NCBI GenBank assembly: GCA_050943415.1
Contig: JBMNPD010000002.1
Location: 5,036-69,035, forward strand
Length of the DNA stretch: 64,000 nt
DNA from: Candidatus Dojkabacteria bacterium
GTDB taxonomy: Bacteria > Patescibacteriota > Dojkabacteria > SC72
Direction: 5' to 3'
Of this stretch, positions 19,591-51,555 are shown piece by piece. The translations under genes and the position numbers were made by a program. The notes under the pieces are model-generated. The model was given only the letters and a program-made list of their open reading frames with translations, was not told where the DNA came from and ran no database searches. Within the stretch, counting starts at the first letter, position 1, and each line of letters starts with the position of its first letter.

Positions 19591-19657
19591 AATTATCTAA
19601 AACTAAATTTAACTACACTCTATTGTAGCATACTGGGGCAGGCCTAGGCCTGCCCCA

Positions 19658-21355: not shown

Positions 21356-22495
21356 TCAATCTTTTGTTAAACCTAAAAACCTCTTGTAGTTATCAATATT
21401 CACAACTTGGTATGTAGCATTTGGATACTTCAACCAACTCTTAGGAGCACTCTTAACCTTACTCCACTTAAATTCATACCCATCTAAACTATCCGCATAC
21501 TTCTCTACATAGTCAACCTCTGCACCATCATATGTTCTCCAAAAGAATCTTGATACATACCTCCTACTATATTCATTCCTCTTCATTCTCTCCAATATTA
21601 AGAAGTTCTCCCACAATACTCCCCTATCATTCCTTTTACTTAATGGATTAAAATTGTTAATTAGAGCATTTCTAATACCTAAATCATAGAAATATATCTT
21701 GTTTTGTTTAGAAAGAACTTTCCTTTCATTACTGTAATACGGTGGTAATCGGAATATAACATAGTTTTTCTCCAACAGATCTATATATCTTTCAACTGTT
21801 TTACTATCCAAACCTACAAGCTTACTGAGCTCTGTTAATGACACCTCTGAACCTATTTGCAACGCCAATGCTGAGAGCAATTTATCAAGATATGAAGAAT
21901 CCTTTACCTTTTCCAATTCTAGAATGTCTTTGTAAAGATAACTCTTACTTATCTCTCTTAACAATCTTTCCTTCTCAGAAATATCACTAGTATATATAGC
22001 TGGATACATACCGTATATGAGGAGTAACTCCAACTCCTTATCTATACTCAAAGGATGCTTTTCTGAATATATTTCACCAACAGAGAGAGGATACAGTTCG
22101 TAGACATATTTTCTACCAGTTAACGGTTCAGATGTATTTGAAAGAAGGTTAAGGCTAGATGATCCTGTTGCAATTATTTGCTTTTTCTCTCCATAGTTAT
22201 CTACTAAAAGTTTTAGTGTATTCCCTATCTCTTTGATTTTTTGAGCCTCATCTATGAATACAATATTTTTGTCAGCTATAAGGTTGTTTAGGTAGTCAAA
22301 ATCTCTTTCTTGAAGATTTGACCTGTCATTAGGGTTATCTGCATTTAAATACAACACATTCTCATACTCTTTTAGTATGTGCATTGCTAAAGTCGTCTTA
22401 CCAACTTGTCTAGGACCGGAGATAATGATAACTCTGCCCTTAAAGAAGTCTTTCTTAATATTTTCTTCAATTGTTCTTTCTAATTTGTACTTCAT
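21356..22495 (-). CDS. AAA+ ATPase with C-terminal DUF4143-like domain (COG1373-type)
   Basis: Walker A ISGPRQVGKTTL. Walker B VFIDEAQ. 379 aa. Typical architecture. Confidence 0.8.
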   Translation of the reverse strand: MKYKLERTIEENIKKDFFKGRVIIISGPRQVGKTTLAMHILKEYENVLYLNADNPNDRSNLQERDFDYLNNLIADKNIVFIDEAQKIKEIGNTLKLLVDNYGEKKQIIATGSSSLNLLSNTSEPLTGRKYVYELYPLSVGEIYSEKHPLSIDKELELLLIYGMYPAIYTSDISEKERLLREISKSYLYKDILELEKVKDSSYLDKLLSALALQIGSEVSLTELSKLVGLDSKTVERYIDLLEKNYVIFRLPPYYSNERKVLSKQNKIYFYDLGIRNALINNFNPLSKRNDRGVLWENFLILERMKRNEYSRRYVSRFFWRTYDGAEVDYVEKYADSLDGYEFKWSKVKSAPKSWLKYPNATYQVVNIDNYKRFLGLTKD

Positions 22496-29883: not shown

Positions 29884-29904
29884 TTGCTAAATGCATACTT
29901 AATG

Positions 29905-29937
29905 AAAGACCACCATTACGGTGGTCTTTTTCTTTTT
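29905..29937 (+). terminator. rho-independent terminator ending the ribosomal-protein cluster (no rpoBC follows)
   Basis: AGACCACCATTACGGTGGTCT followed by TTTTTCTTTTT. Confidence 0.75.
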
Positions 29938-29968
29938 ACATACCCTACTCTTTTACACCATCACTATT

Positions 29969-31408
29969 CTAAATAGTATCTATCTCTTCATTCTCTACTA
30001 CATCTACTTTACAACTCCCTCCTTGATATACACCATATCCTCCATGTTCAAAGTAAGTATTCTGACATGTCAAAACATCAATATTCTCCTGTGAAGAAAT
30101 TACTAAAATATCAACATTGTAAACCTTAGCATAATTCCTAAGAGTACGATTCTTTAAATCTGTAAACAACATATCCCTAAACACATTAGCATCATTCCTG
30201 TTCTTCTCTTCAAAATAAAGATAGATTGTAGAACTCTCATCATTTCTAACATCATCATAACGGAAAGAATTAAAATCATCAGCATACATAACCTTGACCT
30301 TAACAGTATCTTTCAAAGAATCATCAACTTCATACATAACGCCATTTATATGCCCATAAGTATTAAAAAACAACTTCTCATCCATATCAAAATCAACAAC
30401 CTCTGTCTTCATCTCTACACCCTCTGGTGCTTCATCTACAAACTTCATTTTCGAAACCTCATACGAAGAAATACCTACACCGAAAGCTAATCCCAATATG
30501 GAAGCTACAAAAGCTATGAAGACACGAGTCCACTTACTTCTTCTACTTAATACAAAATTAAAACCAACATACAGAAGCATTACAACAAAAGCAATAAATG
30601 ATACTGCTAGTAATATTGGACCAAAATATGCAATACCATTAAACAACAGAACAAACAACATAGAGAGACCTACACCAGAACAGAAAAGTAAGAAAAGAAA
30701 TGGTAATAGTACAAATATTACAAAAATCTTAACAAAAAACAAAAAGACATTACCTAAAAAAGAAAGAATACCAAAATCATACCTAACAACCTTTGTCTCA
30801 GTAACAACACTCTCATTACTCACCTCTTCCTCAATCTCAACATCTTTACTTTTCTCTTTTTCTTCTTCAAACCTATCCAAAAATCTTACTTTGTAAATAT
30901 ATACAAACAAACCAACTGCAACTATGAAATATGCAACCTCTACAACTAAATGCCAAATATTTGCAAAAACAACCCCAATATTCCTACCTAAACACAGAAA
31001 GACATTTCCCCCTAGACTATCCAAAGAGCTGAAAGGTATTTTGACACATAGGATTAATAGAAATAGCACAAAAATTTCCAATAGAAACTTAAACCTACCC
31101 TTTGTTGTAAGTGCTGCGAAATTCTTAAAAGTACCTCTAAGTAAGAGATTAAAGCCATTAAGCATATCTGAAAAAGTATATTTTTTACTCTGTTCACTCC
31201 TAATCTGTGCAACATCATCTTTCATTAACTCATCAAGAGTACAATTAAAAATATCACACATCTTAAGAATCTTTTCTGTCTCAGGATACGCTGCTCCAGA
31301 CTCCCATTTAGAGACAGCTTGTCTGGATACACCTAGCTTGTAAGCAAAATCTTCCTGAGAGAGATTTGCTGACTTACGTAGATGTTCTAAATTTTTTCTA
31401 AAACTCAT
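29969..31408 (-). CDS. XRE-family HTH protein fused to a multi-TM region and an extracytoplasmic domain (membrane-bound regulator)
   Basis: N-terminal LRKSANLSQEDFAYKLGVSRQAVSKWESG is a Cro/C1-type HTH. About four TM helices. C-terminal ~200 aa soluble domain. Confidence 0.7.
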   Translation of the reverse strand: MSFRKNLEHLRKSANLSQEDFAYKLGVSRQAVSKWESGAAYPETEKILKMCDIFNCTLDELMKDDVAQIRSEQSKKYTFSDMLNGFNLLLRGTFKNFAALTTKGRFKFLLEIFVLFLLILCVKIPFSSLDSLGGNVFLCLGRNIGVVFANIWHLVVEVAYFIVAVGLFVYIYKVRFLDRFEEEKEKSKDVEIEEEVSNESVVTETKVVRYDFGILSFLGNVFLFFVKIFVIFVLLPFLFLLFCSGVGLSMLFVLLFNGIAYFGPILLAVSFIAFVVMLLYVGFNFVLSRRSKWTRVFIAFVASILGLAFGVGISSYEVSKMKFVDEAPEGVEMKTEVVDFDMDEKLFFNTYGHINGVMYEVDDSLKDTVKVKVMYADDFNSFRYDDVRNDESSTIYLYFEEKNRNDANVFRDMLFTDLKNRTLRNYAKVYNVDILVISSQENIDVLTCQNTYFEHGGYGVYQGGSCKVDVVENEEIDTI

Positions 31409-31734
31409 AACTACTAATATATATTAATTTAAATTAGCTGATTATATTCATATATCACAAACGCAACCACCAACTTACGGTTGTTTTATGACAACTACAG
31501 GTTGCATATTAGTAGAATATACCAAATTTCCAAGAAAAACACTCCTATGGCAGACCTAGGTTTAACCTAGGTTACACCTCAAACAGGAGAAAATAAACAT
31601 AAGCCAATACTCACTTTTTAAACACCAAAAAGGTTAGACCTAAGCTCAACCTAAATCCCTTTTGTAATTCCTTACTAGCTATATACTTCTGAGAGGTGGG
31701 AATAGGTCTGGCCTAGGTTTAACCCCACCCGCAT

Positions 31735-31768
31735 TTTGTCCTATAAAATTAAGAAGCATGATATAATA
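31735..31768 (+). promoter_or_regulatory. extended -10 promoter (TGATATAAT) for duplicated small gene copy 1
   Basis: CATTTTGTCCTATAAAATTAAGAAGCATGATATAAT followed by AAAAGGAGAAATAAG ATG. Confidence 0.5.
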
Positions 31769-31799
31769 ATCCCCTAGCACATTTAAAAGGAGAAATAAG

Positions 31800-32153
31800 A
31801 TGAGTAAAATTTACTTATACAAAACAACTTACGTGTCGAAACCAGAATTTTTGGCAGCTGCATACAATGCAGCTATTCTCATCGATCCTAGCTATGCTCA
31901 CTACATAATGACCAAATCAGAGGCACTCTTTCTTTTATGTCAAAAAATGTGGCGTGGTCATCCACAATACTTTGGCATCCTAAAAGGTAAACAAATTTTC
32001 CTCAACTTAGACGAAGAATGTGTTGATGTAGCAGCATACAATAAACACAATGGTAGGAGACTTGCTCAAAAGGTTCTACTCCTTTTGCAACAATCGCACC
32101 AACCTGAATCAGATGAAATACGAACGGCTCGCGATTACAACCCGTTCACTTAA
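31800..32153 (+). CDS. hypothetical small protein, paralog A (117 aa)
   Basis: Own promoter and AAGGAG RBS. Shares with paralog B: LAAAYNA/LAAFYNA, N..GxxLAQKVLxLLxQ, and an (I/E)(R/C)TAR C-terminus. Confidence 0.55.
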   Translation: MSKIYLYKTTYVSKPEFLAAAYNAAILIDPSYAHYIMTKSEALFLLCQKMWRGHPQYFGILKGKQIFLNLDEECVDVAAYNKHNGRRLAQKVLLLLQQSHQPESDEIRTARDYNPFT

Positions 32154-32291
32154 TTAATCTCTTCATGATGAGCTAGAATGCCTAGGGTAGTTATATCTAC
32201 ATGAGTTCCACTCTGTAACCCTAGACATATTTCTCTCCTTGCCAACCCATGCATAAATATAATTCAGTATCTAAATTATCATGCCATATCT

Positions 32292-32350
32292 TTGATGACA
32301 TACTCTCCTTTTACAACATGGGTATTAGAAAATGGAATATCTCAACAAAC
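32292..32350 (+). pseudogene. duplicated 5' fragment of the 7TM gene (MMTYSPFTTWVLENGISQQTLQLL…) created by the cassette duplication
   Basis: The first ~20 codons are identical to the start of the intact 33054 gene. The frame then runs into repeat-derived sequence (track ORF 32292..32501). Confidence 0.6.
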
Positions 32351-32542
32351 ATTACAGTTACTACTTAGATTAAACCTAAGTAGAACCTCAAACCAGCAGA
32401 TAAAGAGAGAAGCCTACACCCACTTTTCAAACACCAAAAAGGCTAGACCTAGGCCTAACCTAAATCCCTTTCCTAACTCCTTACTAGCTATATACTTCTG
32501 AGAAGTGGAAATAGGTCTGACCTAGGTTTAACCTCACCCGCA

Positions 32543-32576
32543 TTTTGTCCTATAACATCAAGAAGCATGATATAAT
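32543..32576 (+). promoter_or_regulatory. extended -10 promoter (TGATATAAT) for duplicated small gene copy 2
   Basis: CATTTTGTCCTATAACATCAAGAAGCATGATATAAT followed by GAAAGGAGATAAA ATG. Confidence 0.5.
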
Positions 32577-32606
32577 GATGTCCTAGCTCATTAGAAAGGA
32601 GATAAA

Positions 32607-32927
32607 ATGAGTACTATTATTTCTGGTAAACCATTCACCAGGTCCCAATTATTAGCAGCTTTTTACAATGCAACCGCTACACCTCCTGGCATTAGGAACT
32701 TCCTGATGACCGAAGAAGATGCTGATAGATACTTGTATCAGTATAGCGACTACATAGATGAAGTAGAGGGCAAAAAACTTTACATCAATCTCTTCTTTCT
32801 TGACGAGATAGATGTAACCAAATATAACGAATTCAACGGCGAGAACTTGGCACAAAAAGTTCTCAACCTCCTCGAGCAAGGGTACGCCCCTGACTCAAAG
32901 GAAATCTGTACAGCTAGAATGAGCTAG
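32607..32927 (+). CDS. hypothetical small protein, paralog B (106 aa)
   Basis: See paralog A. The 3' end merges into the conserved flank (GCTAGAATGAGCTAGAATTAGAATGCCTAGG). Confidence 0.55.
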   Translation: MSTIISGKPFTRSQLLAAFYNATATPPGIRNFLMTEEDADRYLYQYSDYIDEVEGKKLYINLFFLDEIDVTKYNEFNGENLAQKVLNLLEQGYAPDSKEICTARMS

Positions 32928-33053
32928 AATTAGAATGCCTAGGATAGTTATATCTACATGAGTTCCACTCTATAAACCCTAGGCATATTTCTCTCCTTGC
33001 CAACCCATCCATAAATAAATATAATTCAGTATCTAAATTATCATGCCATATCT

Positions 33054-33725
33054 TTGATGACATACTCTCCTTTTACAACATGGATGTTAGAAAATGGAAT
33101 ATCTCAACAAACATTACAGTTACTAGTATCCATAACAGTAATAGCCACCATAGTAAGTATATTTCGATACATCATCGGAACAAAATCATACGGCATCTAC
33201 GCACCAATAATCCTAGCAATATCCTACTCATACACAGGACTAAGATACGGACTAGCAATAACCTTCATTACCGTAGCCACCACCCTACTCTCATACACCA
33301 TGCTTAAAAAAATACGAATGCACTACATCACTAGAATAGCCATCAACTACTGCTTACTTGCCATGACAATAATCATATTCATCATGACAATAAACAAATA
33401 CGGATTAGGACTAGAAAAAGTCTCCCTCATATCACCCCTAGCCCTCATATCAATAACTGCCCTCTCAGACTTCTTCATAAAACAATTCACACAGAAATCA
33501 TTAAAAGTATCAATCTCACTCCTACTAGAAACCGTACTCATAGCAACAATCGGTTGGTACATAATCACAAGAGTTTCCATCTCTAACTACATGATTAACA
33601 ACCTCTGGATAATTCCAATCCTCATCATAATCAACCTAGTCATAGGACAATTTAAAGGATTAAGAATCAAAGAAATAATTAGATTTAAATCACTTTCAGA
33701 CGAGAAAGAAAATGTTTCTAAATAA
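33054..33725 (+). CDS. polytopic (about 7TM) membrane protein of the kind associated with alpha-L-glutamate-ligase-like ATP-grasp systems (7TM module without transglutaminase domain)
   Basis: 223 aa, 6-7 hydrophobic helices. Overlaps the downstream ATP-grasp gene by 14 nt. The classification comes from gene context, not from a sequence motif. Confidence 0.6.
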   Translation: MMTYSPFTTWMLENGISQQTLQLLVSITVIATIVSIFRYIIGTKSYGIYAPIILAISYSYTGLRYGLAITFITVATTLLSYTMLKKIRMHYITRIAINYCLLAMTIIIFIMTINKYGLGLEKVSLISPLALISITALSDFFIKQFTQKSLKVSISLLLETVLIATIGWYIITRVSISNYMINNLWIIPILIIINLVIGQFKGLRIKEIIRFKSLSDEKENVSK

Positions 33726-36161: not shown

Positions 36162-37865
36162 ATGAAAGACACATGGGTTCTACAAGGCTTAAATTTCATT
36201 TCACCTACTTCAGTAGTAGTTATGGGAATGGAAGAAAACAAAGATGTTAAAAAACTACTTGATTTAATATCATCATATCACCCCATTTTTATAAAAAAGT
36301 ACTACTTCAAAGACTCCTATCTGTATATTGAAACACCTATACCATTTCTTTGGAGAGAAGCTAGTGAATACCTAAAGAAGCTTGCCAAACAGAAAATGTC
36401 ATATGAAGAATGTAGAGAATATATTGTAGAAGTCATCATAAAACACCGAATAAAATCTATGTCAACCATACCTATATTACATAGTGCATTAACACAAGGG
36501 TACGAGGTTACACCATATATTGTGAGCGACAAAGTTATAGCTGTTGATGATGTAGGTTATACAAAAACATTCAACCGTAGATATACCTTAGGTTGTGGAA
36601 AGAATTCCCATGTAACTTTTTCTATATCTTCTTCTAAAGACGCTGTCGTAGCAAAAACAACTCAAAGAGACAAATATATTACTAATACGATGATTTCTAA
36701 ACTTGGTCTTCCTATGCCTACAAACTATATTGTTAATGATAAAGCTGATATTAAAAAAGTTTGGAAAAAACTTAATAAACCTGTTGTTGTTAAACCAGTA
36801 GGTTTAACAGGTGGTTCAGGAGTTGTAGTAGATATTAATACAATAGAACAAGCAGAGAAAGCATTTGATTTTGCTACCAAAGGTATTAAAACAAAACAAA
36901 GGAAAGAGTGGCAAACTAAAATAATGGTACAAGAACAGGTAGAAGGTGAAGATTATAGATTACTAGTTGTAGATGAGAAATTGGAAGTTGTTACCAAAAG
37001 AATCCCTGCATTCATCGTAGGTGACGGCAAGAGTACAATCGAGGAACTAATCGAACAAACCAATGCGGATCCTAGAAGAGATATTACTAATCCAACTCAT
37101 ACTTTGAAACCCATAAAGATAGATGATCCCCTACTCGACTATCTTAAGGAACAGAAACTTTCGTTGAAAGATATTCCAGAGAAAGATGAGAAGATACAGG
37201 TAAGAAAGGTTGCAAGTATGAGTCAGGGAGGTATAACTGAGGATTTTACAGATCAGGTTAGTGCAGAGATTAAATATATTGTTGAAAGTATTGCTCAATC
37301 TATTCATGCATTTACATTAGGTGTAGATATTTTGTGTAAAGATATTAGCAAACCACTTACTCAAGACAATGGTGCTATTCTAGAGGTCAATACTATGCCA
37401 GAGGCATATCTAAATCTCTACCCTGTTTTGGGTACAAAGAGAGATTATGTAGCAGATACATATGTTAAGAAATTACTCAAGGATAATAGATGCAAAAAAA
37501 TAGTAGTTGTTGGTAATCCTGAGAAAGATATACCTACTCTTCTTAAGGACAAGTTCCTTTTCTGGTCATATCTAAAACAAGATGATGTAGTTGGAGAATA
37601 CAGAGAGGGAGAGATAAGGATAAATGGATTGGAAATAAATAATGGCTTAGAGAAATGGAAAGGTATAGAGGCACTAAAGGTTAATGCTTCTCTAGATGCA
37701 ATAGTTATTCATCATAGGAATTGGGAGGATGTACAAGCTAATGGTTTAGGTTTCAACAAGATAGACTTGTTAATAGTTACTAAAGATATGAGAAAAGATG
37801 ATAGATTTAAGCAAATGATTAAATATAGGTTAAGTGGTTATATATCTAGAATAAGGGTAATCTAA
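36162..37865 (+). CDS. ATP-grasp ligase, cyanophycin-synthetase N-domain-like (567 aa, extra N- and C-terminal regions, no Mur-ligase domain)
   Basis: VVKPVGLTGGSGVVV. DYRLLVVDEKLEVVTKRIPAFIVGDGKSTIEELIEQTNADPRRDITNP is the CphA hallmark. GVDILCKDISKPL. EVNTMPEAYLN. Confidence 0.75.
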   Translation: MKDTWVLQGLNFISPTSVVVMGMEENKDVKKLLDLISSYHPIFIKKYYFKDSYLYIETPIPFLWREASEYLKKLAKQKMSYEECREYIVEVIIKHRIKSMSTIPILHSALTQGYEVTPYIVSDKVIAVDDVGYTKTFNRRYTLGCGKNSHVTFSISSSKDAVVAKTTQRDKYITNTMISKLGLPMPTNYIVNDKADIKKVWKKLNKPVVVKPVGLTGGSGVVVDINTIEQAEKAFDFATKGIKTKQRKEWQTKIMVQEQVEGEDYRLLVVDEKLEVVTKRIPAFIVGDGKSTIEELIEQTNADPRRDITNPTHTLKPIKIDDPLLDYLKEQKLSLKDIPEKDEKIQVRKVASMSQGGITEDFTDQVSAEIKYIVESIAQSIHAFTLGVDILCKDISKPLTQDNGAILEVNTMPEAYLNLYPVLGTKRDYVADTYVKKLLKDNRCKKIVVVGNPEKDIPTLLKDKFLFWSYLKQDDVVGEYREGEIRINGLEINNGLEKWKGIEALKVNASLDAIVIHHRNWEDVQANGLGFNKIDLLIVTKDMRKDDRFKQMIKYRLSGYISRIRVI

Positions 37866-37977
37866 TACCCTACTCACCAAATTAAGTCAAATTTGGTGAA
37901 TGACACTCACTAGATTTGTGTGAATATGGGGAATGGGTTTGTTGTTTTTTAAAGGAGAGATTTTATAAAAGAAACAT

Positions 37978-38029
37978 CCTAGTGCCTGAGATTTATGAGG
38001 GAATAATCCACTCTACTCAGGACACTAGG
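37978..38029. terminator. long inverted-repeat hairpin (copy 0): bidirectional terminator between the ATP-grasp operon and small gene 1
   Basis: CCTAGTGCCTGAG...CTCAGGACACTAGG around a ~26-nt loop GGGAATAATCCACTCTA. Same family as the hairpins at 38470..38525 and 39021..39075. Confidence 0.5.
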
Positions 38030-38041
38030 TCCACATTAAAA

Positions 38042-38290
38042 TTATTTCTTATCCTTAATCTTTTCTATAAAGAAGATTACTGATACTCCATAATATAGCC
38101 ACCCTACTATGCTTACAAACACATATAGGAATTTAATTGGTAATAAGTCGGCTAGTAGGATTGTAAATGGTCCAACTAGCATTGCAGATGAATACTCATA
38201 TTTCTCGAAATCCTTTCTCCATAAATAATATGATCTAACAACTAAACCAATAATTATACTAAGTAGACAAAACCAACGATGAAAACTCAT
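38042..38290 (-). CDS. small membrane protein 1 (82 aa, 2-3 TM)
   Basis: Consensus promoter TTGTCA-17-(TG)TACAAT upstream at 38345..38378 and RBS AAGGAGAAACAG ATG. A terminator hairpin lies downstream. Confidence 0.5.
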   Translation of the reverse strand: MSFHRWFCLLSIIIGLVVRSYYLWRKDFEKYEYSSAMLVGPFTILLADLLPIKFLYVFVSIVGWLYYGVSVIFFIEKIKDKK

Positions 38291-38329
38291 CTGTTTCTCC
38301 TTTTCTTTTTAATTCCTCTAAAGAAATTT

Positions 38330-38530
38330 TTAATGCGCTACACTACATTGTACCAATTTTTGCCTCACTTGACAATACTATAGGTCGGGATACTTCTAAT
38401 ATAATAAAACTCCTCTTCACAAGTAAATAACAAAAAAGAAAAGTTAAAACCATATATACAAAAATAATAATCTAGCGCCTGAGATTCTGGGGAATAATCC
38501 ACCCTATATATCTCAGGCACTAGATCCATG
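38330..38530 (-). repeat. conserved ~200-bp non-coding module (terminator hairpin + spacer + near-consensus promoter), copy 1 of 2 full copies
   Basis: About 85% identical to 38880..39085. Shared pieces: CTCCTCTTCACAAGTAAA…AAAAGAAAAGTTAAAACCATATATACAAAAA…TAATAATCTAGCGCCTGAGATTCTG(G/A)GG…ATATATCTCAG…, and the promoter core TACCAATTTTTGCC(T/C)CACTT(G/A)ACAA. Confidence 0.7.
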
Positions 38531-38533
38531 CAA

Positions 38534-38833
38534 TCAAGATTTTAAGGATTTAATTTTATTTCTTAGAAGAGACAAATTCTTTCTGCAGTTCAAAAAGGAT
38601 TTCTTTAATGAGGACCATTCGTCCTTACAATAATAACCGATATTTACACATAAGATTGCCCAAACAACCCATTTATTGCTTATACCCTCCAATCCGTCAG
38701 AGAATACTGCAATAAACAGTGTTGATAAGAACATGACATTTCTCCTGATATGTTGATCATTCTTTAAATCCATATAACACAAACAAGAGAAATAAAAACC
38801 TACAACACCTAATAATATAAACCCTGTCCACAT
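38534..38833 (-). CDS. small membrane protein 2 (99 aa, Cys-rich, about 3 TM)
   Basis: Promoter TTGTTA-17-(TG)TATAAT at 38891..38925. RBS AAAGGAGAATGTT ATG. A terminator hairpin lies downstream. Confidence 0.5.
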   Translation of the reverse strand: MWTGFILLGVVGFYFSCLCYMDLKNDQHIRRNVMFLSTLFIAVFSDGLEGISNKWVVWAILCVNIGYYCKDEWSSLKKSFLNCRKNLSLLRNKIKSLKS

Positions 38834-38879
38834 AACATTCTCCTTTATTTTTCGATCCTATCCTAAAAAATCTTGATTT

Positions 38880-39085
38880 TGAAAGTACGACTGTACATTA
38901 TACCAATTTTTGCCCCACTTAACAACGCTATAGGATAACACACTTCTAATATAATAAAACTCCTCTTCACAAGTAAAAACAAAAAAGAAAAGTTAAAACC
39001 ATATATACAAAAAAATAATAATCTAGCGCCTGAGATTCTGAGGGATAACCACTCTATATATCTCAGACACCAGATCTCCGTACAA
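38880..39085 (-). repeat. conserved ~200-bp non-coding module (terminator hairpin + spacer + promoter), copy 2
   Basis: See 38330..38530. Confidence 0.7.
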
Positions 39086-39086
39086 A

Positions 39087-39248
39087 TTAAAAGGTGGAGT
39101 TTAACAACTCCTTAATACCTTTAATTTCTTCTCTCGCAAGAGAGAGGTAGGTTTCCAATTCTTGCAACATCTTACACCTCTTTCTTACTGCGTAAACTAC
39201 TACTAATGCTACTCCCAGAGCAGCAAAGACAAAAAGTATTGCATACAT
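39087..39248 (-). CDS. small membrane-anchored protein 3 (53 aa, 1 TM + amphipathic tail)
   Basis: MYAILFVFAALGVALVVVYAVRKRCKMLQELETYLSLAREEIKGIKELLNSTF. Own promoter (TGATATAAT) and RBS AAGAAAGAGG. Followed by the conserved hairpin. Below the 60-aa ORF-track cutoff. Confidence 0.35.
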   Translation of the reverse strand: MYAILFVFAALGVALVVVYAVRKRCKMLQELETYLSLAREEIKGIKELLNSTF

Positions 39249-39388
39249 AATTAAACCTCTTTCTTACTGAATGTACGATAATGTAATTATATCAAGCTTG
39301 TATACACTACTCAACACTATAAGACCACATACTCCTCCCCACCCATGATATAATAAAACATTAATATTAATTTAAAAATATTCAAACA

Positions 39389-40342
39389 ATGAAATACCTA
39401 ATCATAGACAAAAGACAAAGAGTAGAAGTTAAAACTATGGGTGAAATACCTACAGGTTCTGCAAGATTAGTTGAAGAATTAGAAAAAAGAAACATAGAAT
39501 GTGATTTCATATACAATGACCAACTCGAATTCATATACCAAGACCAAAAAACAACAATACTAGCTGGTGGCAACGACATTCTCACATATACCCACATCAT
39601 ATTCAGAGGCCATGCACTACACATAGACAAGGAATACCATTTCAAGAGATACATAATCGACCATATAGACGAATACAATTCCAAAAATCCAGACAAGAAG
39701 ATACTAGTGCAAAACTCAGAAGCAATCAAAAGATTCCCCTACTACAACAAAATAGAAATTGCTCAAATCTGTAACAAACACAACCTCCCATACTTCAACA
39801 CATACTACAGAACAGATGGAGAATATACACAAGAAAGAAACTACCTTAAACAATACCCACTCATCATAAAAGAGTATACAGGTGCAAACAGAGTAGAAAT
39901 GATAGATGGAGTTGAAAAAATCAAAAAGAATGTATTTAAACTAGAGAAAGACGAAGACTACAAACAAGAAGGATTAGATGGACAAGACCTAACCAACTTC
40001 TTTATCCAAGAATTCTCAGATGCAGGCGAAGACTACAGAATCTTCGTAAAGCTAGGAAAAGTAATAGCAGGATGGAAAAGAAAAGCTACCTCTGGATTTA
40101 TGACAGTAAGCAAAGGAGAGTATGAAATGTACAATGAGCCAAATGAAGAAATAAAAGAGATTGCTGAGAAAATGGCATCTGTTTTAGATGCAGACTTCAT
40201 GGCTGTAGACTTCATGTACATCCATGGTAAGCCACACATACAAGAGATAAGCTTCCATCCAGGATACAAAGCATACGAGACAAAGATAGAGGGTACTCCT
40301 GTGAACATCGCAGAAGCAATAATTACTGCGTTTAAGGAGTAA
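39389..40342 (+). CDS. RimK-like ATP-grasp ligase (317 aa)
   Basis: LIIKEYTGANRVEM. EDYRIFVKLGKVIAGWKRKATSGFMT is the ATP-grasp central/flexible-loop pattern (DYR..V.G.KV.A..KR). AVDFMYIHGKPHIQEI. Extended -10 promoter TGATATAAT at about 39346. The stop abuts the convergent DUF1704 gene. Confidence 0.65.
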   Translation: MKYLIIDKRQRVEVKTMGEIPTGSARLVEELEKRNIECDFIYNDQLEFIYQDQKTTILAGGNDILTYTHIIFRGHALHIDKEYHFKRYIIDHIDEYNSKNPDKKILVQNSEAIKRFPYYNKIEIAQICNKHNLPYFNTYYRTDGEYTQERNYLKQYPLIIKEYTGANRVEMIDGVEKIKKNVFKLEKDEDYKQEGLDGQDLTNFFIQEFSDAGEDYRIFVKLGKVIAGWKRKATSGFMTVSKGEYEMYNEPNEEIKEIAEKMASVLDADFMAVDFMYIHGKPHIQEISFHPGYKAYETKIEGTPVNIAEAIITAFKE

Positions 40343-41506
40343 TTAGAGACCTACCTTCTTAAATATACTTAACCACTCTTCCTTACTAGGAACATTGGTA
40401 GCCTTTGGAATAAGACCGTCCTCTACCCATTCACATTGCTTGAAAGTAATCTTTCCTGAGTAAAGCATATTGTACAACAAAGGATTCTTCTCTAATCTAG
40501 CAGACACCTTCTTAAAACCTCTAAAGTAAACAACATCCTTAGCATAGATACCTGGTTTTGAAGTGTCTGATAATCCTCTCTTCACCCTGTATGTAGTACT
40601 AAATGCAGAGAATTTCGGCAATATTGCATACAAACAGTTATACAACTCTCTAAACGTCATCTTTTGACCAACATATATAGCATATACAAGAGCAACCTTT
40701 TTTCTAAGCCAATTCTCTGTAAGAAGATCCATATTACTTTCATTCCACGTAGCAAGACCCTCCTCTACATCTAAATACTCTGGTAAAGTAGCATTACCAA
40801 GTGCGGGAAACCCACTATTAGAACCATTTACAGACCTTAACACATGCGTACCAACCTCATGAACAATGGTCTTTTTCAATTTCAACTTACTCCTAACAAT
40901 ATTTTTATCAACCAATATTTGCTTCCTTTTAATACCTACTTTTACACTATTCTTAGCAATATTCATAGATTCAGCAACCTCCCAATCATCAAGACCTAAT
41001 ATTGAAAACACCTTTCTAAAAACCTCTGAAATCTCATCATAACCTAACAATTCATCAGTATCAACTTTCTTGCTACTTTCTATAAGGTTGTAGTTACTAA
41101 CATTCCCCCGAAGTACTCTACATGAATTCCTAAACAACTTAGCAAAAGGCAAACCAAACCTAGCAGTAGAAATCTCTGTTACCAACTCATTATTTCCTAC
41201 AGCTTTTATTAATTCGTTAGCCTCCTTTTTTGAAGCTATGAGGTCAATATAGAAAGAAGAAATCCTAGGATCAACATCAGAAATTTCCTCCACAGTAGAG
41301 AGAAACTTCAGTATTTTATCATTCTTGTTAGCAACACCCCTATATTTGAACACAGGATTATATGTATCTGAATCAAAAAATTTCTTCTTCTCCTCCTCAA
41401 GATTAATTGGGGTAAAAACTAAAGCTGTTGGAAGTCTTAACTGATCTAAGAAAGTTGTTACTTCATCAAGCTTCATCTGCTTTTTCTTTTTATCAAAAAT
41501 CCCCAT
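40343..41506 (-). CDS. DUF1704 (QEGLA-motif, flavohemoglobin expression-modulating family; MATCAP-like zinc carboxypeptidase fold)
   Basis: HEVGTHVLRSVNG is a putative HExx(x)H zinc site. EEGLATW is a variant of the family-defining QEGLA motif. 387 aa, typical for this family. Confidence 0.65.
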   Translation of the reverse strand: MGIFDKKKKQMKLDEVTTFLDQLRLPTALVFTPINLEEEKKKFFDSDTYNPVFKYRGVANKNDKILKFLSTVEEISDVDPRISSFYIDLIASKKEANELIKAVGNNELVTEISTARFGLPFAKLFRNSCRVLRGNVSNYNLIESSKKVDTDELLGYDEISEVFRKVFSILGLDDWEVAESMNIAKNSVKVGIKRKQILVDKNIVRSKLKLKKTIVHEVGTHVLRSVNGSNSGFPALGNATLPEYLDVEEGLATWNESNMDLLTENWLRKKVALVYAIYVGQKMTFRELYNCLYAILPKFSAFSTTYRVKRGLSDTSKPGIYAKDVVYFRGFKKVSARLEKNPLLYNMLYSGKITFKQCEWVEDGLIPKATNVPSKEEWLSIFKKVGL

Positions 41507-50184: not shown

Positions 50185-51555
50185 CTAATATACAATTTTA
50201 GGAGCAAAACCCCAATGATCAGCTGCTTTTGCTAAAGCAGAATCAGGATGCTCTTTAATCCATTCATCTAAATTTCCTCTACCTAAAGCAATATCTTTAG
50301 CTTGTACTACAGCTTCTACCCCTGCCTCTATGCCCCAAGGATGACCTAACACTCCTCCTCCACACTGAATCATAATATTTTCACCTAAACGAGCGATGAC
50401 ATCTTGCAGTACACCAGGATGCAAACCTCCTGAAGCTACATGCCAAACAGGCTTCATACCGTACCAATTCTGACCAAGTGTAATACTTGATGGCGGAGTA
50501 ATATCTAATTCTAAAACATCTCTGACTAGTTTAGGCTCTCCATAGTTCTCCATTTTAGTCTTTGGTGCACCTCCATGAAAAGAGTCTACACCTAACAATC
50601 TCATAATTTTAGCAATGGCAACCATTGACATAGAGAAGTCTAAAATCTCTCCCTTATCATATACACCAGGTCCGGATTCTCTACTAAACAAACTATGCAT
50701 TGCTCTATGTGCATGTATTGCAAGGCCAGGATTTTTCAACCTCATTGTATGAACTGCAGAAAATCCAGTAGTAACAACATCCATCATCAACCACCTACCA
50801 CCATGAGCTTTTATGAGTCCTGCTCTGTCAAGCATAGTTTCCATATTCGAATGAGTTACATTGCAAAAGTAGAACTTCTTTTTTCCTGTACTCTCCTCGA
50901 CCTCTTTCTGCACTTCTAAAACAGCCTTACATCTATCTTCAAATTTGTTAAAAAACAAACTGGTTAGATTTTCATCATCTTTCATACCATGATATTCACC
51001 ATTTGCAGCAGTAAAGAGAATCCTTGCCAAATCAGCCTGTTCCTGTGCTGTTCTACCAACTTTTGGCTTTGGAACAGTAAGAAGAAGTGGACCTCTCTCA
51101 ATCTGCATCTGCTCTCGTATACCATCTATACCAAATTGAGGTCCAGGAAAGGCTTGTACCATCTTCCTTGGAAACCTAATATCTATGCATCTAAATGCCT
51201 TTAACATCTTCATTCCACCAACATTCCCAACAATTCCTGCAAGCAAACCTGACATATTATCAACTTCAAACAAATCTACCTTGTACGCAATTTTGAAAGT
51301 ATTGGTCTCTGGTTCAAGATCGTAAGCTACAGCTTTCATCTCATCAGCCATAGGTACACCAGAACTTTCACCATCATACACTTTTGTCCATGTACCTGTA
51401 GAACTCTCTGCTGCACACGCTCCTGCTACTTCCACAAACTTATCTTTAGCCTCATCGATCATTTCTACATCCAGATATGTAATGATGTAGTCCTCATCAG
51501 GATTTTTAGGTTGCCATCCTTTCGGTGCAACATATGGATTTTCTTTCTCAGCCAT
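50185..51555 (-). CDS. rbcL: RuBisCO large-subunit homologue, form II/III-like
   Basis: Catalytic K-D-D-E cluster (GMKDDENLTS). IHAHRAMH (His294 region). SGGLHPG loop. 456 aa. The GGLDF segment is altered to GEYHG. Confidence 0.8.
   Translation of the reverse strand: MAEKENPYVAPKGWQPKNPDEDYIITYLDVEMIDEAKDKFVEVAGACAAESSTGTWTKVYDGESSGVPMADEMKAVAYDLEPETNTFKIAYKVDLFEVDNMSGLLAGIVGNVGGMKMLKAFRCIDIRFPRKMVQAFPGPQFGIDGIREQMQIERGPLLLTVPKPKVGRTAQEQADLARILFTAANGEYHGMKDDENLTSLFFNKFEDRCKAVLEVQKEVEESTGKKKFYFCNVTHSNMETMLDRAGLIKAHGGRWLMMDVVTTGFSAVHTMRLKNPGLAIHAHRAMHSLFSRESGPGVYDKGEILDFSMSMVAIAKIMRLLGVDSFHGGAPKTKMENYGEPKLVRDVLELDITPPSSITLGQNWYGMKPVWHVASGGLHPGVLQDVIARLGENIMIQCGGGVLGHPWGIEAGVEAVVQAKDIALGRGNLDEWIKEHPDSALAKAADHWGFAPKIVY

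Follow-up and report, generated by a model that had tools for sequence, protein, structure and literature searches.

Analysis of a 64,000-nucleotide (nt) stretch of a Candidatus Dojkabacteria contig (the window, whose coordinates are used below unless a contig, L0xx, is named) revealed a tandem pair of cassettes at 31554-33125, each carrying a different small gene and each followed by the start of a seven-transmembrane (7TM) gene, the first gene of an ATP-grasp operon. We put a probability of roughly 60% on this array having arisen through recombination between haplotypes rather than by divergence in place, which would make it a strain-level mosaic of small accessory genes related to those of phages. 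An earlier note on this DNA had described tandem units of ~0.8 kb, and a repeat search and pairwise alignment recovered them where that note had placed them, with unit 1 at 31554-32362, unit 2 at 32363-33125 and the duplication junction at 32362/32363. The extended -10 promoter, ribosome binding site and small open reading frame (ORF; 117 and 106 amino acids, aa) that it had reported are also present in both units. Each unit has the same order: CCTAGG-type palindromes, an extended -10 element, a Shine-Dalgarno sequence, the small ORF, a hairpin of ~50 nt and finally ~135 nt that include the 7TM start. The features of the array are as follows (pI, isoelectric point).

31554-31799, plus strand: 5' flank of unit 1, with CCTAGG/AGGTTTAACCT palindromes, extended -10 element TGATATAAT and Shine-Dalgarno sequence
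31555-31579, 31631-31644 and 31703-31725: palindromes of unit 1, of the CCTAGG/AGGTTTAACCT type
31759-31767 (unit 1) and 32568-32576 (unit 2): extended -10 promoter TGATATAAT
~31786-31793 (unit 1): strong Shine-Dalgarno sequence AAAGGAGA, found also in unit 2
31800-32153, plus strand: ORF A, 117 aa, pI 8.9
32178-32228, plus strand: cassette hairpin 1 (ATGCCTAGGG...CCCTAGACAT), terminator-like
32239-32263, plus strand: duplicated copy of the 7TM promoter in unit 1 (TTGCCA ... TATAAT), spacer of 13 nt
32292-32362, plus strand: 7TM remnant, the first 24 codons, in a frame open to 32501
32363-32606, plus strand: 5' flank of unit 2, with palindromes, extended -10 element and Shine-Dalgarno sequence as in unit 1
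32607-32927, plus strand: ORF B, 106 aa, pI 4.5, a hypothetical protein of Candidatus Dojkabacteria according to NCBI
32935-32986, plus strand: cassette hairpin 2
32997-33025, plus strand: intact native promoter of the 7TM/ATP-grasp operon (TTGCCA-17-TATAAT)
33054-33725, plus strand: intact 7TM gene, RloB-like membrane part, first gene of the ATP-grasp operon (to 40342)

The palindromes are strongly concentrated at this locus: eight of the 13 CCTAGG sites in the window lie inside 31555-32983, within 1.4 kb, and all nine CCTAGGTTTAACC-like sites (1.3 expected by chance) are at the cassettes. The junction was seen in four contigs of other assemblies from the Joint Genome Institute (JGI) and ENA that are 99.9-100% identical to the window, two of which (L011, L012) cover A, the junction and B, and two of which (L013, L014) begin at ~32250 and cover the junction and B. 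This recurrence in other assemblies indicates that the tandem is no assembly artefact.

Comparison of the two units by segment showed that their divergence is far from uniform. The distal and proximal parts of the 5' flank are 76% and 89% identical, respectively, the ORFs 56% at the DNA level, the hairpins 92%, the 7TM promoter and leader 98% plus a 4-nt indel, and the 7TM codons 1-24 97%, with 96% for the 3' flank as a whole. Divergence per site (K) is ~0.02-0.11 in the 3' flank and the promoter-proximal 5' flank, the distal 5' tract excluded, compared with a synonymous divergence (dS) of 1.0-1.25 between the ORFs (nonsynonymous divergence, dN, ~0.5; dN/dS ~0.45). Third codon positions of A and B are 0.48 identical and thus essentially saturated, whereas identity in the hairpin, promoter copy and proximal 5' flank is 0.89-0.98. 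This pattern bears out the non-uniform divergence that the earlier note had expected, with flank K of ~0.02-0.11 against an ORF dS of at least 1.0, and the heterogeneity, as read from the alignments, excludes a uniform old duplication. Judged from these identities, A and B are old paralogues that sit within young flanks and were not made by the present duplication.

The proteins encoded by A and B are 40% identical over 102 aligned residues (E = 1e-19), so that the description of them as sharing only scattered motifs was an understatement. Since dN/dS is ~0.45 and the predicted folds are confident, both genes show the signature expected of functional genes under purifying selection, not of rapid drift. 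The proposed comparison of nonsynonymous and synonymous rates therefore supported the divergence of the ORFs but not fast evolution after duplication, and the term fast-evolving payload does not fit: synonymous sites are saturated, the split is old, and A differs at just 6 of 354 nt between strains. For A, the comparison of window 31800-32153 with L001:3623-3976 gave six nucleotide differences, five of which change four residues (S31N, Q65P, K82R, H83F) and one of which is synonymous, counts too small to test positive selection.

What had been described as a conserved 3' flank consists of the cassette hairpin followed by the native 7TM promoter, its leader and the first 24 codons of the host gene. 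Only ~110-160 nt separate rplL from the 7TM gene in related Dojkabacteria, and this spacer contains a conserved promoter and leader with the pattern TTGCTT/TTGCCA ... TATAAT ... AAATTATCAT ... ATGACATA, found directly after rplL in L015, L017 and L040. A promoter scan detected the unit-2 copy (32997-33025), which matches 11 of 12 consensus positions, and missed the unit-1 copy at 32239-32263. Alignment showed that the latter carries a 4-nt deletion that cuts its spacer to 13 nt, and this predicted promoter copy is therefore probably inactive. The view of the first 7TM start as a remnant that reads through into repeat sequence proved correct: the ORF at 32292-32501 reads MTYSPFTTWVLENGISQQTLQLL and then continues through the unit-2 flank to a stop at 32501. 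The remnant is 100% identical to the functional 7TM start of L001 and 97% identical to that of the window, from which it differs at two positions. Because it has no coding constraint and is nevertheless 97-100% identical to functional copies, the remnant serves as a neutral marker of the youth of the flanks, and because it is among the best-conserved parts, selection alone cannot account for the similarity of the flanks. Hairpin 1 folds as a 10-bp stem with internal sub-hairpins. The hairpin sequence, which can also be written ATGCCTAGGG...CCCTAGGCAT, is 82-92% conserved among cassettes A, B and the third cassette C described below, although synonymous sites in their ORFs are saturated; no Rfam family was found in the flanks at the gathering threshold or at E <= 1.

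Comparison of the window with public contigs revealed both haplotype variation at the array and sharply bounded tracts of divergence around it. In a sister population, ~2% diverged and represented by 14 Logan contigs, a single cassette A lies directly upstream of the intact 7TM gene, giving a tally among public contigs of 14 Logan contigs with A alone and five contigs with A plus B. The sister population is ~97% identical to the window over long BLAST alignments and 98-100% identical in most 100-nt bins, as is L001, one of its contigs, which shows no difference at all over the 800 nt at 30700-31499. Immediately beyond this segment, at 31500-31660, identity to L001 drops to 75% in a sharply bounded tract that covers the distal 5' flank of unit 1, and the distal part of unit 1 (31554-31665) is 76-78% identical to both unit 2 and L001. 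The 5' flank of the single cassette in L001 is itself mixed, its distal part resembling unit 2 of the window (92%) and its proximal part matching unit 1 (100%). This mixed flank, together with a unit-1 remnant that matches L001 exactly, fits a tandem assembled from two haplotypes.

Two other divergent tracts relative to L001 lie within the operon, one at 36400-36900 (~60% identity, bins ~54-70%), inside the third ATP-grasp gene (36162-37865), and one at 37900-38300. The former looks like an imported divergent segment in a cyanophycin-synthetase-like gene. Between the third and fourth ATP-grasp genes is a 1.5-kb insert (37866-39388) that is highly diverged from L001 and holds minus-strand ORFs for small membrane proteins at 38042-38290, 38534-38833 and 39087-39248; these two ATP-grasp genes are adjacent in 23 of the 27 related loci described below, that is, in all that extend that far.

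A third paralogue, C (115 aa, pI 6.9), was found at a second site in L001, L002 and L004, the sister contigs that reach the rplL side, so that the suggested search for further cassette copies in strain variants was productive. The features at this site are as follows (HTH, helix-turn-helix).

L001:1192-1753: cassette C, a 562-nt insertion between the rplL terminator and the 3' end of the HTH gene
29884-29968: the corresponding site in the window, without a cassette
29969-31408, minus strand: XRE-type HTH protein with a membrane region, 479 aa (Pfam HTH_3, E = 8e-15), divergently oriented

Cassette C is bounded by short CTTTT(T) repeats and ends 7 nt past its hairpin. It repeats the promoter-ORF-hairpin layout of A and B, with a single palindrome, TGGTATAAT, a Shine-Dalgarno sequence and the ORF ahead of the shared hairpin (fold z-score -3.3), which is followed by a U-tract. 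The hairpin is 82-84% identical to that of A or B, whereas the promoter region is only ~52% identical to those of A and B. At the protein level B and C are the closest pair (51%), followed by A and C (45%) and then A and B (40%), which disagrees with the ranking of the flanks, where A and B are close (89% in the proximal part) and C is far (~52%). Such disagreement means that flanks and cores have different histories, which requires recombination or gene conversion and bears out the recombination that had been proposed from A and B. No further copy of A, B or C was found in the window by tblastn, and the GTDB representative genomes contain no relative of them. When metagenomes were scanned with the hairpin core, the only true match was a contig identical to the window, and four others had arisen by chance.

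Taken together, these observations suggest the following origin for the array. At the sequence level, each unit is a self-contained accessory transcription unit with promoter, gene, terminator-like hairpin and operator-like palindromes, from which we infer expression, and it lies in the short spacer between rplL and the 7TM gene. A segment of 0.76-0.81 kb, comprising one cassette together with the native 7TM promoter, leader and 24 codons, is present twice in tandem, and this array would have been built through recombination between haplotypes of a recombining population. One possible route starts with an illegitimate tandem duplication, after which homologous recombination through the shared flanks would have replaced one core. 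Alternatively, a circularised A unit could have entered a B-type chromosome by a single Campbell-type integration, crossing over where the distal 5' flank meets the proximal part, a route that would account in one step for both the foreign distal flank of unit 1 and the sister-strain-like distal flank of unit 2. By either route, the 7TM remnant of unit 1 would be left to decay and the operon would be driven by the intact promoter beside the real gene.

The small proteins encoded by the cassettes belong to a poorly annotated family. A, B and C have no match in Pfam, NCBIfam, PHROG or PADLOC and form a three-member subfamily even among ~15 billion proteins. An exhaustive HMMER profile search retrieved 131 cluster representatives of remote homologues (E <= 1e-3); apart from A, B and C, the best of them scored 3e-12. 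Profile similarity and, for A and B, a shared predicted fold place all three in a family of ~90 aa, 'LAALYN ... YNxxNG', that overlaps PHROG 12532, the latter being matched by 4 of 48 family members. The domain is alpha/beta with the pattern K-x3-LAALYN ... MT-x2-EA ... G(R/K)-x-L-x-(I/V)-x-L ... Y(N/D)-x2-NG, and it occurs alone, as two or three tandem copies (Seinonella peptonophila WP_073158551.1) or inside larger proteins, in which ankyrin repeats are the only recognisable fusion partner. AlphaFold models of A and B have the same order of secondary-structure elements and high predicted local distance difference test scores (pLDDT; 93.8 and 96.2), so that the two proteins are not unrelated in structure prediction, the outcome that the note had named as refuting. 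Foldseek found nothing in the PDB below E = 0.6 for either model, and a PDB sequence-profile search gave one chance-level match to Bep (E = 0.47). Structural matches in BFVD were to Caudovirales proteins (one with a template modelling, TM, score of 0.69, E = 3e-5) and Terrestrivirus proteins.

Members of this family are frequent on viral contigs. A single peptide pattern retrieved 42 viral contigs from IMG/VR, and matches among GenBank phages were hypothetical proteins of Streptomyces phage Gilgamesh and Dulem virus 39. On the viral contigs the relatives lie in arrays of small ORFs whose neighbours, where annotated, are replication and recombination genes, including Erf, exonuclease, primase and RNA ligase, with no conserved partner gene beside them, and the neighbourhood of the nearest remote homologue (P0005) was uninformative. 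Viral contigs yielded neither a close relative of A, B or C nor any DNA of the flanks or the hairpin. The charge of the three proteins is widely spread (pI 8.9, 4.5 and 6.9 for A, B and C, respectively). We would guess, and hold only weakly, that A, B and C are phage-derived accessory proteins that act in conflict between phage and host or between strains.

A scan of GTDB representative genomes identified 27 Dojkabacteria loci whose first ATP-grasp protein has 64-89% aa identity to that of the window, and the order rplA-rplJ-rplL-7TM-grasp1-grasp2-grasp3-grasp4 is common to all of those with enough sequence. None of the 27 loci has a member of the small-protein family within 10 kb, as judged with hidden Markov models built from alignments A3 and A4, and no cassette motif was found anywhere in 409 kb of related genomes. 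The tie between the cassettes and the ATP-grasp operon that the note had implied is thus not upheld, since 27 related species keep the operon without a cassette; going by this comparison of gene order, the cassettes are lineage-specific accessory insertions and not parts of the operon. They are not the only insertions here, because the HTH-membrane gene occupies the same position only in L023 and L031 among the 27 species (39-43% identity), making it a lineage-variable insertion, and L016, L018 and L024 carry other insertions between rplL and the 7TM gene. With lineage-specific insertions in several species, this spacer is an insertion hotspot in several Dojkabacteria.

All three species with the HTH-membrane gene share a conserved element, GGTTGCA...GCAACC, upstream of it (window 31460-31510; L023:9170-9230; L031:4865-4925). 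This element is probably the gene's own operator and is distinct from the cassette palindromes. For this reason we rejected the CCTAGG palindromes as operator of the divergent HTH gene. Among ORFs of at least 80 aa at 18.8-53.5 kb, a Pfam scan detected neither an integrase nor a transposase nor any other recombinase domain. An invertible promoter switch is also unlikely, since all contigs have a single orientation and no recombinase was found in the scanned ORFs. The flanking genes are housekeeping genes: nusG, rplK, rplA, rplJ, rplL, the ATP-grasp genes, mreB and tRNA synthetases.

The 7TM gene matches PF14402 (E = 9e-17) and NCBIfam RloB (E = 7e-14), and the operon downstream is RloB/RloC-like, with a retropepsin-like domain fused to a ligase and with extra cyanophycin-synthetase-like ATP-grasp genes. 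Adjoining its RimK-like fourth ATP-grasp gene (39389-40342) is a MATCAP/DUF1704-like carboxypeptidase gene on the minus strand (40346-41506; PF08014, E = 4e-26), and the two are a possible ligase/peptidase couple. A 23-nt GC-rich palindrome (with GGCAGGCCTAGGCCTGCC) is found in identical form in the window at 19634-19657 and at L015:3955-3990, in the rplL-7TM spacer of the closest sister species, and may be a dispersed palindromic terminator or repeat. Elsewhere in the window, the minus strand encodes a RuBisCO large-subunit homologue (50188-51555; PF00016, E = 9e-54), which we take to be possibly form III, and an AAA_14/DUF4143 ATPase (21359-22495).

Several points weigh against a haplotype merger. 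No B-only or other donor haplotype was found among the public contigs, and so the order of events is one that we infer; the distal flank of unit 2 is just 92% identical to L001, below expectation for an L001-like donor; microhomology at the junction is at most 2-4 nt and little informative; the hairpins of A and B lack a good U-tract; and the promoter, terminator and operator roles were assigned solely from consensus matches and folding. Moreover, gene conversion confined to the flanks could yield the same identity profile. Such flank-limited conversion in an old array is the main rival: the tandem would have duplicated in place long ago, its flanks would have been homogenised by repeated conversion unable to enter the diverged cores, and single-cassette strains would have arisen by deletion between flanks. 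Identity on the 3' side climbs away from the ORF (92% to 98%) as if conversion tracts stopped at the core, and unequal recombination in the 3' flank would delete B and leave A before an intact 7TM gene, as in L001. We nevertheless regard this account as unlikely, because no single deletion in an A-B array gives a 5' flank like that of L001, unit-2-like distally and unit-1-like proximally; because the unit-1 remnant is exactly the L001 allele and not the 7TM start of the window; because cassette C, at a different site, demonstrates that units exist outside the tandem; and because cassettes are entirely lacking in L015, the closest sister species, whose first ATP-grasp protein shows 89% aa identity. 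Still less plausible, and close to refuted by the remnant, is a simple duplication whose flanks look young only through strong purifying selection on regulatory DNA while the ORFs drift. The promoter, Shine-Dalgarno sequence, palindromes and hairpin do lie in the flanks, but the best-conserved part of unit 1 is a non-functional gene remnant and a promoter copy with a broken spacer, the ORFs are themselves under purifying selection (dN/dS ~0.45, confident folds for both), and the ~52% identity of the C promoter region argues that regulatory sequence is not universally constrained.

The units could also be mobile, if another part of the genome encoded a recombinase or transposase that recognises the hairpin and CCTAGG palindromes, in the manner of integron attC cassettes or of hairpin-ended, palindrome-associated elements derived from IS200/IS605. 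The clean presence or absence of cassette C at a second site, with its end 7 nt past the hairpin, agrees with this, as do the strong conservation of the hairpin across three cassettes with synonymously saturated ORFs, the clustering of CCTAGG sites and the palindrome ACCTAGGTTTAACCTAGGT, which coincides exactly with the 5' boundary of the repeat unit and whose two arms have changed in step in unit 2. We consider mobility improbable, however: no recombinase domain was found in the scanned ORFs, the units have their own promoters, unlike integron cassettes, the 24 host-gene codons in the tandem unit point to segmental duplication instead of precise insertion, cassette motifs are missing from the 409 kb of related genomes and from viral contigs, and the CTTTT(T) repeats at the C site also fit deletion by slippage. 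The conservation of the hairpin across A, B and C leaves a small chance for hairpin-guided mobility. A long shot of similar standing is that the units are a new type of hairpin/palindrome-bounded mini-cassette moving between intergenic sites of a reduced Candidate Phyla Radiation (CPR) genome, via an enzyme encoded elsewhere or host recombination on CCTAGG hairpins, each delivering a promoter-equipped, phage-derived gene with a fold not yet in the PDB, possibly for phage-host conflict. A reading about function, to which we give marginally less credence again, is that A and B, as immunity-type proteins or else as substrates or regulators of the ATP-grasp ligases encoded downstream, are being diversified for that role. 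Orphan immunity arrays of contact-dependent inhibition (CDI) and polymorphic-toxin loci contain small divergent tandem genes, conserved intergenic repeats and a remnant of a neighbouring gene. The present locus resembles such arrays. RimK-type ligases modify protein C-termini (PMC12239564), and each of the three cassette proteins has a different C-terminal tail. Opposed to this are the lack of an adjacent toxin gene or fragment, the lack of a Pfam, NCBIfam or PADLOC match, the retention of the operon without these genes in 27 species and the occurrence of distant relatives in viral small-gene arrays, beside RNA ligase, Erf, exonuclease and primase genes and with no conserved partner; the label immunity-type used in the note accordingly finds no backing.

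In sum, the preferred mosaic origin makes this locus a clean, well-bounded case of accessory-gene shuffling in an uncultivated Dojkabacteria (CPR) population, one that shows presence/absence cassettes, a probable haplotype merger with a gene remnant and a damaged promoter copy left behind, and imported tracts with sharp boundaries. By itself the locus offers no new mechanism and no new ATP-grasp component, being in our judgement an ordinary recombination mosaic; the remaining points of note are the uncharacterised family fold and the unusually well-conserved CCTAGG hairpin in all three cassettes. A widespread family without a Pfam model, with 131 distant cluster representatives, 42 viral contigs from one pattern, confident models and no Foldseek match in the PDB, is a reasonable structural and functional target.

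Finally, comparison with known systems places the cassettes near, but not within, several of them. Phage morons are autonomous promoter-gene-terminator units inserted between conserved genes. Like these, the cassettes are strain-variable one-gene units with their own promoter and a terminator-like hairpin between conserved neighbours, carrying genes of a family found on viral contigs, and features of an autonomous transcription unit (TGnTATAAT promoters, hairpins, presence or absence between strains) can be recognised in their sequence. Unlike morons, they are located in a chromosomal ribosomal-protein/ATP-grasp neighbourhood with housekeeping neighbours and with no prophage genes in the scanned region around them, and A, B and C have no close relative on the viral contigs searched. 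With the orphan immunity arrays of CDI, Rhs and bacteriocin loci, the array shares tandem diverged small genes in conserved repeated flanks, a truncated neighbour gene and recombination as its builder. In contrast to those arrays, the truncated gene is a housekeeping-type 7TM gene, whose 24-codon start is the sole gene fragment present, so that neither a toxin domain nor a toxin C-terminal fragment adjoins the small genes; A, B and C match no recognised immunity family in Pfam, NCBIfam, PHROG or PADLOC; and their relatives lie in viral small-gene arrays. Integron arrays likewise consist of serial small cassettes that each end in a conserved imperfect palindrome. Integron cassettes, however, are promoterless and have an attC site conserved in structure, whereas the units here have their own extended -10 promoters, a hairpin conserved in sequence (82-92%) and not merely in structure, and host gene sequence within the repeat unit; no IntI with attI adjoins them, the scanned ORFs containing no recombinase. 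A diversity-generating retroelement was rejected as well, since there is no reverse transcriptase in the scanned region and the differences between A and B affect all bases and include indels. For the genes downstream, the comparison system is the rloABC/RimK-like operons (PMC12239564). The small-protein genes show none of the conserved co-occurrence expected of a component of an RloABC-type operon (0 of 27 loci). The downstream genes themselves match RloB (the 7TM part), the RloC-type ATP-grasp protein and the RloA-like retropepsin domain of those operons (PMC12239564), and they differ in a 7TM protein that lacks the transglutaminase domain, in the fusion of the retropepsin-like domain with the ligase and in three more ATP-grasp genes that follow.

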